A stretch of 10,366 nt of DNA from a virus (lineage: Duplodnaviria; Heunggongvirae; Uroviricota; Caudoviricetes): IMG/VR virus record IMGVR_UViG_2695420456_000007, one strand, 5' to 3'. A model generated the notes under the pieces. That model was not told where the DNA came from. It saw nothing but the letters and a program-made list of their open reading frames with translations, and did not search any database. Shown here in pieces: positions 3,111 to 4,448 of this stretch (position 1 is its first letter; every line of letters begins with the position of its first letter). The translations under genes and the position numbers were made by a program.

Positions 3111-3709
3111 GCAACCTCACTTCTGCTGTTTCGCAGTTTTTTAAGTTTCTGTTGATACTCCGCCTTGATGGCCCTGCACTCTTCGACAGTCCAGCGATAG
3201 CGGTTATGGTTTGATTCGATTTCCTCTACTGCTTCCTGCCCGATGCGGCTAATCAGTTCGACGCGATACGGAACGAGATTTCCGCTTTTGTGCTGGTTGC
3301 ACACCACGCATTGCTTGTGAATATTGCGTTCATCAAATCGGAGTTGAGGTGCCGCAGCAGTTGTCCGGTAATGTCCGGCATCCCACTGAGCAGACGTGAG
3401 CGTTCCGCACGAGATACATGGTAAGTCGCGGTCTCTTTCTCTGATGAAGGCGTTTACGGCTTGTTGGGCTTGTTTAATCCAGTAACTGCGGGGCTTTAAG
3501 GCGAGTTTTCGAATCTTCAGTTTATCTTTCTGTTTCTGCTCCTCTCGTCGTAGTTTCTTCTCTGCTGCTTTTTCCGCTTTTTCGCGTTCTTTACTTCGTC
3601 GTTCGAGTGCTATCTTGGTTCCACAAATCTCATTACACCAATATTGATTTTGATATTTTGGTATAAACCATTCATTGCAACATTTACATTTCCTTCGATA
3701 GATTCGCAT
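3107..3709 (-). CDS. ninG: NinG (Rap) recombination protein family; start assigned to the internal ATG preceded by AAAGGAG
   Basis: From [15 protein letters not shown] onward, the translation (...[24 protein letters not shown]...[18 protein letters not shown]...[28 protein letters not shown]...) matches lambda NinG as I recall it. The ORF track extends it to 3769, but the ATG at 3709..3707 has a good Shine-Dalgarno (aaaggagcactt ATG). The extra 20 codons overlap the upstream HNH gene. Confidence 0.85.
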
Positions 3710-4250
3710 AAGTGCTCCTTTCGTTGCCGGAAAAATCACCGTAATACTTATCTCGGGCTTCTTCAGCAACTAGTACCGCTAACTCCAGATCATCAAAGCA
3801 TCCGAAGTGTTTACTCTTGCCATGGAATCCTAGCCTAACATTCCATTTTTTCTGTCGTTTGTGCCAAGTACCCCCTCTGCAACCTGATTTGCTATTCTTT
3901 CGGATCCTTATATTTCTTGAATTTTCTATTGGCAGGCATTCTCTTAAATTTTCTGGCCTATTGTCGGTCCTAATTCCATTAACGTGGTCAATTTGACCAG
4001 CAGGCCAACGATTATGAGTTATGTAAAAAACTAAGACGTGAGTTTTATATCTACGCCCATCTATCATGATCATTGAATAACCGTTGGAATCAAAAGTTCC
4101 AGCAACACTATTTAATGCTATCCTTCCCTGAGTGGGAACTTTCCATCTAAATACCCCGGTAGATTTATCGAAACTTAGTAACTCAAATATCCTTTTAACA
4201 GTTAAATCTTCTCTTTTACGGTTACATCGTCTTCGCGCTGGTTTAGCCAT
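3684..4250 (-). CDS. HNH homing endonuclease-like protein (HNH_3-type motif plus AP2-like DNA-binding domain); ORF is open upstream to 4331
   Basis: Translation contains [47 protein letters not shown], an HNH-type motif, followed by an AP2-like segment [51 protein letters not shown]. The ATG at 4250..4248 is preceded by GGAGGAAGAAGG. The first nine residues from that [12 protein letters not shown], are the same as the N-terminus of lambda NinG as I recall it. Confidence 0.8.
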
Positions 4251-4448
4251 CGCCTTCTTCCTCCGTAATGGTTTTCTGAATTTGGCCACCTGAACAGAGC
4301 TCACCAAAGCTATGGATGTCGGTATTTCCACAATACCAAGATGGCGAAAATAACTGCATGATAAGCCTCAGGGAAAAGGGAAGACACTACCCCCGATAAT
4401 TCAGAAACAAATCGAAATACATGAACTAAAGAAAAAACCACAACAAAC

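Follow-up and report, generated by a model that had tools for sequence, protein, structure and literature searches.

An HNH_3-AP2 endonuclease gene that begins with the start of ninG, and the rebuilt ninG behind it, in the nin region of a lambdoid prophage

Nuclease genes described in phage coding sequences

HNH-AP2 is a recognised homing-endonuclease architecture (PMC10448857, relaying the work of Magnani et al. 2004; PMC5714182, group 2), and the closest known proteins of this build are the I-HmuI/HNH_3 + AP2 homing endonucleases of His-Me finger group 2, with the F-Tfl nickases of phage T5 and gp3.8 of phage T7 among their relatives. Here we analyse a gene of this kind that lies near the 5′ end of ninG in the IMG/VR virus record IMGVR_UViG_2695420456_000007 (Caudoviricetes), a stretch of 10,366 nucleotides referred to as a whole as the window, which represents the nin region of a lambdoid prophage resembling Shiga-toxin (Stx) phages and is read here on the minus strand. 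The window protein has in common with the described enzymes the order of an N-terminal beta region, a beta-beta-alpha-metal core and a C-terminal AP2 domain (PMC5714182; PMC10448857), as well as the catalytic residues, a size of about 170-190 amino acids and a phage habitat. It differs from them in being at most 50% identical, in carrying an N-terminal decapeptide derived from ninG and a C-terminal tail, and in having no start codon of its own.

Three kinds of described gene resemble the arrangement at this locus. Gene 31 of phage epsilon34 is an in-frame fusion between the N-terminus of EaE and an HNH homing endonuclease (PMC2629481), and there, as in the window, an HNH gene in a lambdoid/P22-like phage appropriated the start of the gene that it invaded, together with its N-terminal codons (PMC2629481). 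The epsilon34 gene differs in its locus (the early left operon) and in its HNH lineage, and that paper describes no regenerated downstream copy, whereas the DNA brought in at the window locus (the cassette) rebuilds a complete ninG. The free-standing endonuclease genes of T4-like phages (mobE in nrdA of Aeh1; SegG) are, as here, free of introns and inteins, lie within or beside a conserved gene and leave the host function in place; flanking markers are co-converted with such genes, and at the cleavage site the sequence of the carrier allele is unlike that of the target (PMC3045599, PMC2988022, PMC10448857). Nucleases have also been described at recombination boundaries (PMC10448857). At Aeh1 mobE/nrdA the host protein consists of two pieces that reassemble, whereas in the window only nine codons are left behind and NinG is a single piece, read from a 5′ end that has been duplicated and recoded and that brings a separate ribosome-binding site. 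Finally, the HNH endonucleases of inteins and group I introns are likewise selfish nuclease genes placed in a coding sequence without destroying the host gene, but they depend on splicing, unlike the window gene, whose open reading frame (ORF) ends at a stop codon before ninG restarts in another frame (541-nt offset). As a mobile element the cassette is of a well-known type; it stands out in that the host gene undergoes neither splitting nor splicing and is rebuilt from a recoded 5′ end borne by the cassette. Hundreds of RefSeq genomes, among them O157:H7 Sakai (prophage Sp17) and two Stx1 phages, already have the two genes annotated, one as 'HNH endonuclease' and the other as 'recombination protein NinG'. 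Literature searches on ninG in combination with homing endonucleases, and on the names of the two carrier phages, gave no paper on this embedded arrangement, and it goes unmentioned in the announcement of the SH2026Stx1 genome. We consider it moderately probable that the window holds a free-standing HNH_3 + AP2 (I-HmuI-like) homing-endonuclease gene in a lambda-type ninG, which would cut naive ninG and copy itself by recombinational repair.

The borrowed start and the rebuilt ninG

The features on which the description of the locus depends are the following (all on the minus strand).

4222..4267, minus strand: lambda-type island (end of ninF, GGAGG at 4264-4260, ATG at 4250 and ninG codons 1-9), from which the HNH protein now takes its N-terminal residues and the start of its translation
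3684..4250, minus strand: HNH endonuclease gene, 188 amino acids (Pfam HNH_3, phrog_99, profile and fold matches)
3626..4221, minus strand: cassette-specific DNA, about 596 bp, missing from uninterrupted ninG and replacing 65 nt (lambda 42460-42524)
4222..4235, minus strand: left copy of an imperfect 14-nt direct repeat, CGAAGACGATGTAA, ninG codons RRRC-K, lambda-type
3684..3697, minus strand: right copy of the repeat, CGAAGGAAATGTAA, with ninG codons RRKC-K like those of the H-19B allele; the terminal TAA is, in the other frame, the HNH stop
3710..3719, minus strand: new ninG ribosome-binding site, located within the HNH ORF in its 3′ tail (AGGAG at 3719-3715, then 5 nt of spacer)
3626..3709, minus strand: cassette-borne 5′ end of ninG, 84 nt, 28.6% GC against about 50% in lambda and H-19B
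3107..3709, minus strand: ninG (rap), 200 amino acids, full length (Pfam NinG, E 1.9e-83, model positions 5-192 of 193)

The maximal ORF of the HNH gene runs on the minus strand from a GTG at 4331 to the stop at 3684 (215 amino acids), and a first-pass annotation of the window, made from the letters alone, had marked this extent while reading the protein from the ATG at 4250. The stop was placed correctly, whereas 4251-4331 is upstream open frame only; RefSeq, through the Prokaryotic Genome Annotation Pipeline (PGAP), also puts the HNH start at the ATG at 4250, from which a protein of 188 amino acids with the N-terminus MAKPARRRC is read. The same annotation had given this as the beginning of lambda NinG, and the translation of lambda ninG (J02459, 42429-43043) agrees, since it starts with (M)MAKPARRRC and all nine residues (9/9) are the same. 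In BLASTP the HNH ORF and lambda NinG have these nine N-terminal residues in common and no further similarity, so that tandem duplication and divergence of ninG could be ruled out as the source of the HNH ORF. At the nucleotide level 41 of the 43 positions between 4264 and 4222 are identical to the end of ninF and the start of ninG in lambda, the ribosome-binding region included, and the identity breaks off abruptly at 4222, after ...CGATGTAA. Because the match is of this extent and ends so sharply, the common start of the HNH ORF and lambda ninG reflects shared ancestry and not chance. Megablast homology to lambda and the HK phages begins at 4263-4267, and the GC content is 52% in the lambda-type island vs 39% in the HNH body.

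Homologues of the HNH protein start about five residues ahead of a conserved LTxxRLRELL helix. As the window protein has ten extra N-terminal residues relative to these homologues, and no internal methionine where they begin, its first ten or so residues are an appendage from NinG; the left end of the cassette is joined in frame after ninG codon 9/10. At the other end, about 12 extra C-terminal residues represent read-through of the new ribosome-binding site and start of ninG. The nuclease is translated from the Shine-Dalgarno sequence and ATG that belonged to ninG, with MAKPARRRC as a disordered N-terminal tag. A consensus scan of the cassette gave no promoter of its own, so the HNH gene and ninG are presumably transcribed together with the rest of the nin operon. 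To compare this arrangement between loci a set of 60 sequences was used, made up of the window, 57 further IMG/VR loci, the Stx1 phage SH2026Stx1 and the Escherichia coli sequence VCSW5. The fusion is present in all 59 of the other cassette loci (59/59), and related phages in which the HNH gene stands apart behind an unrelated 5′ sequence, the arrangement that would have told against the reading in the first-pass annotation, were not found among them.

Alignment with uninterrupted ninF-ninG loci, which had been proposed in that annotation as a check, defined the boundaries of the cassette at 4221 and 3626, with lambda 42460-42524 replaced. The most informative sequence is VCSW5, where the same HNH gene lies behind an intact ninF: compared with lambda it is colinear through ninF and nucleotides 1-28 of ninG (170 nt, 95%) and again to the right of the cassette (519 nt of ninG at 97%). 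These comparisons bear out the view that an HNH gene is embedded near the 5′ end of ninG and uses the ninG start, but not that it was cleanly inserted. Because 65 nt have been swapped for about 596 bp, and because the imperfect 14-nt repeat consists of RR(R/K)CK codons that are now present twice, what is seen is a replacement in which the start of ninG has become partly duplicated. The repeat, whose right copy resembles the H-19B allele (CGAAGGAAATGCAA at the same codons), reflects no more than this duplication of codons; the target duplication that had been looked for at the insertion point is not a true one.

The cassette is made of two parts, the HNH body (39% GC) and a re-created 5′ end of ninG. 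The second part shows about 55% nucleotide identity to lambda, which jumps to about 100% at 3625; from there downstream ninG is lambda-type (503 of 519 nt identical to lambda). It retains the four cysteines and the EWF, NQ and WC motifs. The longest run common to the 65 replaced nucleotides and the cassette version is 9 nt. The HNH stop codon, TAA at 3686-3684, is reached 23 nt after the ATG of ninG at 3709, which is in a different frame, giving an overlap of 26 nt with the 3′ end of the HNH gene, and PGAP puts the NinG start at the ATG after AGGAG in all annotated copies. The earlier observation that the NinG body has its own ATG and a new Shine-Dalgarno sequence (AGGAG with a 5-nt spacer) and overlaps the HNH gene was therefore accurate. 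The accompanying idea that ninG was forced to reinitiate holds as far as the new start is concerned, but reinitiation does not take place within the old sequence: the cassette supplies the Shine-Dalgarno sequence and the ATG, and with them four codons that are new (MRIY) and, for codons 5-28 or thereabouts, a foreign version rich in AT. A complete NinG is, on this reading of the sequence, still made from the cassette-borne start joined to the body of the resident ninG. In the structural description as a whole, that is the fusion, the borrowed start and the rebuilt ninG, we have high confidence. An intein or intron was also considered and was ruled out, as there is a stop codon at the end of the HNH ORF (3684) and the new start of ninG (3709) is in the other frame; no Rfam family matched at E ≤ 1 within 3400-4750.

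The recoded front end of ninG is closely linked to the HNH gene. In blastn searches it was present in 538 of 5,426 complete E. coli genomes, in 531 of which at least 80% of a query spanning the 3′ end of the HNH gene was covered, and the 50 matches listed all have their first aligned base at query position 1, which falls in the 3′ end of the HNH gene, and none has it at the ninG start. In a collection of 50,697 phage records (tblastn) the segment occurred only in the HNH-bearing Stx1 phages SH2026Stx1 and AU6Stx1, the next-best phage ninG alleles being 65-67% identical over this stretch. An index of 5.8 billion proteins, in which clustering at 90% may mask variants, returned only E. coli fragments of the same NinG, and the GTDB species representatives held no close relative. 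A natural allele with the variant front end and no HNH gene was found in none of these four collections, for the E. coli genomes among the matches listed. The distribution indicates that the recoded front end belongs to the cassette, and its low GC content points to a foreign origin.

The nuclease, its distribution and its proposed homing

The HNH protein can be divided into residues 1-9, which come from NinG, an I-HmuI-like HNH_3 nuclease (about 15-115), an AP2 DNA-binding domain (about 120-175) and a tail (176-188) that runs through the new ninG start. Pfam HNH_3 (PF13392) matches residues 68-107 with 42.7 bits (cut-off 24.8, E 4.2e-11), and phrog_99, 'HNH endonuclease', the largest phage HNH family, matches at 1.6e-69. 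Six residues that are invariant in 13 homologues (D88, H89, N101, L102, R103 and N110; D88-H89 is encoded at 3989-3984) are present in the window protein, and the catalytic D-H...N...N residues (D88-H89, N101 and N110) are intact. Pfam AP2 was not reached at E < 0.01 with the single window sequence, whereas PF00847 is present in three homologues (P0006, P0012 and P0014) and a family profile matched in the PDB the plant AP2 domains of WRI1 (2.8e-10), TEM1 (1.6e-6) and ERF1 (5e-3) as well as I-HmuI (1u3e, 7e-7). An AlphaFold2 model (predicted local distance difference test score 83, with residues 1-10 and 178-188 of low confidence) has strands at 86-89 and 102-105 followed by a helix at 107-113, forming the beta-beta-alpha core of HNH, and then a three-strand-plus-helix AP2 domain. 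The best Foldseek match to the model was I-HmuI (1u3e) with a probability of 0.99, although with E 5e-3 and a whole-chain template-modelling score of 0.35, and the AP2 domain of AtERF1 (1gcc) could be aligned to it with a root-mean-square deviation of 1.4 Å over 51 columns.

Relatives of the protein were found by tblastn in 2,975 phage records, including the F-Tfl nicking endonucleases of the T5 type and T7 gp3.8, all of them less than 60% identical except for the ninG-embedded copies. Beyond those copies identity does not exceed 50% even for the nearest homologues, and their genomic contexts are unrelated; none of the closest ones has ninG as a neighbour, one being in a T7-like phage and one on a bacterial contig. 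Most members of the family are annotated as homing endonucleases. The window copy carries one private change, V127G (position 3871, minus strand, G vs T in the 59 other loci), which turns the AP2 motif 'RGV' into 'RGG'. A second HNH-AP2 gene, 37% identical, lies in the early region of Stx2a_F349 (AP012530.1, 16746-17204), a phage with a normal ninG, so lambdoid Stx phages are host to more than one lineage of HNH-AP2 nuclease at different sites.

The cassette is found in 537 of the 5,426 complete E. coli genomes (about 10%), mostly in lineages of Shiga-toxin-producing E. coli (STEC), and among its carriers are prophage Sp17 of O157:H7 Sakai and the inducible Stx1 phages SH2026Stx1 and AU6Stx1. 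Its presence is polymorphic at one precise site: lambda, F829 and several hundred other genomes are uninterrupted, and 537 have the cassette at the same junctions. A 252-nt query across the uninterrupted junction was matched with at least 80% coverage in about 1,050 genomes, about 545 of these at 95% identity or more and the others representing different ninG alleles. Counted by place rather than by genome, there are 570 cassettes in 538 genomes (median 1 per genome); about 32 genomes have the cassette in two prophages, which could be due to spread within the genome or to double lysogeny. A frequency of this order in STEC lineages with many competing lambdoid prophages, together with an ORF that is intact in 59 of the 60 loci and a location in a recombination operon beside another His-Me-finger nuclease, NinG (PMC5714182, group 24), might also be expected if the nuclease were kept for damaging or excluding lambdoid phages with a sensitive ninG (marker exclusion, as for SegG of T4), or for work with NinG/Rap in recombination, its own spread not being the main reason for its presence. 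We regard such a role as improbable, as no match to a known defence protein goes beyond a bare HNH motif, no partner gene travels with the cassette, and exclusion and homing would be two faces of one activity and hardly separate mechanisms. The first-pass annotation had also mentioned defence systems, with which no link was found: PADLOC gave only a marginal match to ZorE over a 24-residue HNH motif (E 0.0078) and the neighbours vary between loci, which lends no support to a defence-system component.

Among the 60 sequences the cassette is found in two upstream contexts, behind an orphan gene in 39 (including the window) and behind a lambda-like ninF, of which there are several alleles, in 21, and the gene content downstream varies as well: some loci have ninH and others lack it, and the Q gene is not always the same. 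Mean pairwise diversity among the 60 sequences was as follows.

46-nt left island: 2.5%
HNH body: 0.44%
recoded ninG segment: 0.22%
first 226 nt of the resident ninG: 2.2%
remainder of ninG: 6%
beyond ninG: 30-37%

The polymorphism of the cassette is 5-10 times lower than that of its flanks, and there are 19 haplotypes in the cassette (596 nt) vs 27 in the adjacent 126 nt, one cassette haplotype being joined to many flank haplotypes. At +9, +33 and +75 from the boundary the right flank of VCSW5 has single-nucleotide polymorphisms in common with the uninterrupted F829 allele, where the window is lambda-type. Such a pattern would be left by repeated homing in which short tracts are co-converted. 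The HNH gene and the AT-rich front of ninG might instead have arrived once from a low-GC phage by illegitimate or short-homology recombination and later been shuffled by recombination in the nin region, in which case the nuclease would not be aimed at ninG and the MAKPARRRC fusion would be an accident of the junction. The sharp boundaries of composition and identity are typical of lambdoid mosaic joints, the window holds a second, unrelated joint of this sort at about 4267, where the orphan gene takes the place of ninF, most carriers have one copy of the cassette, and the nearest HNH homologues lie in unrelated contexts. It is harder to see how passive shuffling would leave the cassette 5-10 times less diverse than the DNA that touches it, with the same boundary (within 9 nt) against many ninG alleles, keep both reading frames neatly and 59 of 60 HNH ORFs intact, and do so with a member of a family mostly annotated as homing endonucleases; we therefore think this origin unlikely, if less so than a role in competition.

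The same alignments bear on whether the endonuclease is still active. The ORF of 188 codons is intact in 59 of the 60 loci, one copy being frameshifted, and truncated HNH variants also exist; differences within the HNH ORF comprise 13 synonymous and 13 non-synonymous changes. The frameshifted and truncated copies, the 1:1 ratio and the private V127G in the conserved RGV motif could mean that the gene is a decaying relic, inactive at least in the window copy and kept because its removal would destroy the ninG start. Against this the catalytic residues are intact, 59 of 60 ORFs are of full length with less than 0.5% diversity, the model folds confidently and the cassette is present in two inducible Stx1 phages, and we hold a relic to be about as improbable as a competitive role.

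If the gene is a homing-endonuclease gene, as we favour, the steps would be the following. The nuclease would be made with the nin operon at induction or co-infection and would nick or cut a lambda-type ninG that lacks the HNH gene, with the cut predicted to lie inside, or to span, the 65-nt stretch displaced by the cassette. The break would be repaired by recombination from the cassette-bearing allele, with ninF and the ninG start as the left arm and the ninG body as the right arm, and the cassette plus short flanking tracts would be copied into the target. The carrier allele would be immune since its site is interrupted and the downstream half recoded (longest common run 9 nt). Several points weigh against this reading. 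Cleavage and homing are what we infer from the sequence, and the target site is a predicted one. Most carrier genomes hold one copy of the cassette, although STEC strains contain several lambdoid prophages with ninG, so that spread within lysogens would be inefficient at best. The 13:13 ratio indicates only moderate constraint, and V127G may weaken DNA binding in the window copy. The gradient of diversity and the reassorted flanks could also be produced by a single insertion followed by ordinary lambdoid mosaic recombination. Finally, no intermediate or ancestral form was found from which the AT-rich ninG segment could be derived.

A more specific form of the homing proposal is that the cassette is a self-contained 'insert-and-repair' module, in which the nuclease travels with a replacement for about 28 codons of ninG that is recoded in advance, immune to cleavage and equipped with its own ribosome-binding site. 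This we put forward tentatively, as a possibility short of a probability. Should the AT-rich segment have evolved as an immunity patch, rather than being a foreign piece of ninG acquired by chance, nuclease genes would have a third and distinct way of occupying coding sequences, in which the gene lives in an ORF without an intron or intein by hijacking the translation start of its target.

Neighbouring genes and significance

In the order of the minus strand the window begins with replication genes, and the genes around the HNH-ninG pair are the following.

8232-7780, minus strand: ninB (ORF and Pfam reading)
7783-7256, minus strand: Dam-like methylase gene (ORF and Pfam reading)
4720-6573, plus strand (opposite to the nin operon): orphan gene, 617 amino acids, in the ninE/ninF position
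3110-2445, minus strand: NinI phosphatase gene
2448-1825, minus strand: Q

The orphan gene is AT-rich (34% GC), and its sole match is to phrog_9230 (unknown function); neither Pfam nor PADLOC gave a match. It is this gene that adjoins the cassette upstream in the 39 sequences of the comparison set, and it does so in SH2026Stx1 too; it looks like a moron of unknown role. Between it and the HNH gene lies a perfect-looking hexamer microsatellite (4445-4485; (AAATAG)6.8 on the plus strand, TTTCTA on the minus strand), and as the alignment with SH2026Stx1 is broken into two pieces around this region, its copy number is suggested to vary. On the downstream side the stop codon of ninG overlaps the start of the NinI phosphatase gene at 3107-3110 (ATGA), and ninH, which stands between these genes in lambda, VCSW5 and SH2026Stx1, is absent from the window. 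Directly downstream of Q a hydrophobic protein of 252 amino acids is encoded at 829-1587 (minus strand; phrog_1521, unknown function; no PADLOC match). In Stx phages tRNA genes and the toxin genes sit just downstream of Q; no tRNA genes were found across the whole window.

For annotation, the arrangement accounts both for the odd N-terminus of these NinG proteins and for an 'HNH endonuclease' that starts like NinG. It also provides a precise and testable case of a probable free-standing homing-endonuclease gene inside an essential-looking reading frame without splicing, which takes the start of that frame and returns a recoded one, and the predicted target of the nuclease falls within about 65 bp of ninG in lambda, the best-understood phage system. 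If the nuclease is active it would direct gene conversion in the nin/Q region, which immediately precedes the toxin genes, and the insert-and-repair module, if real, could drive mosaicism of ninG and of the nin region among Shiga-toxin prophages.

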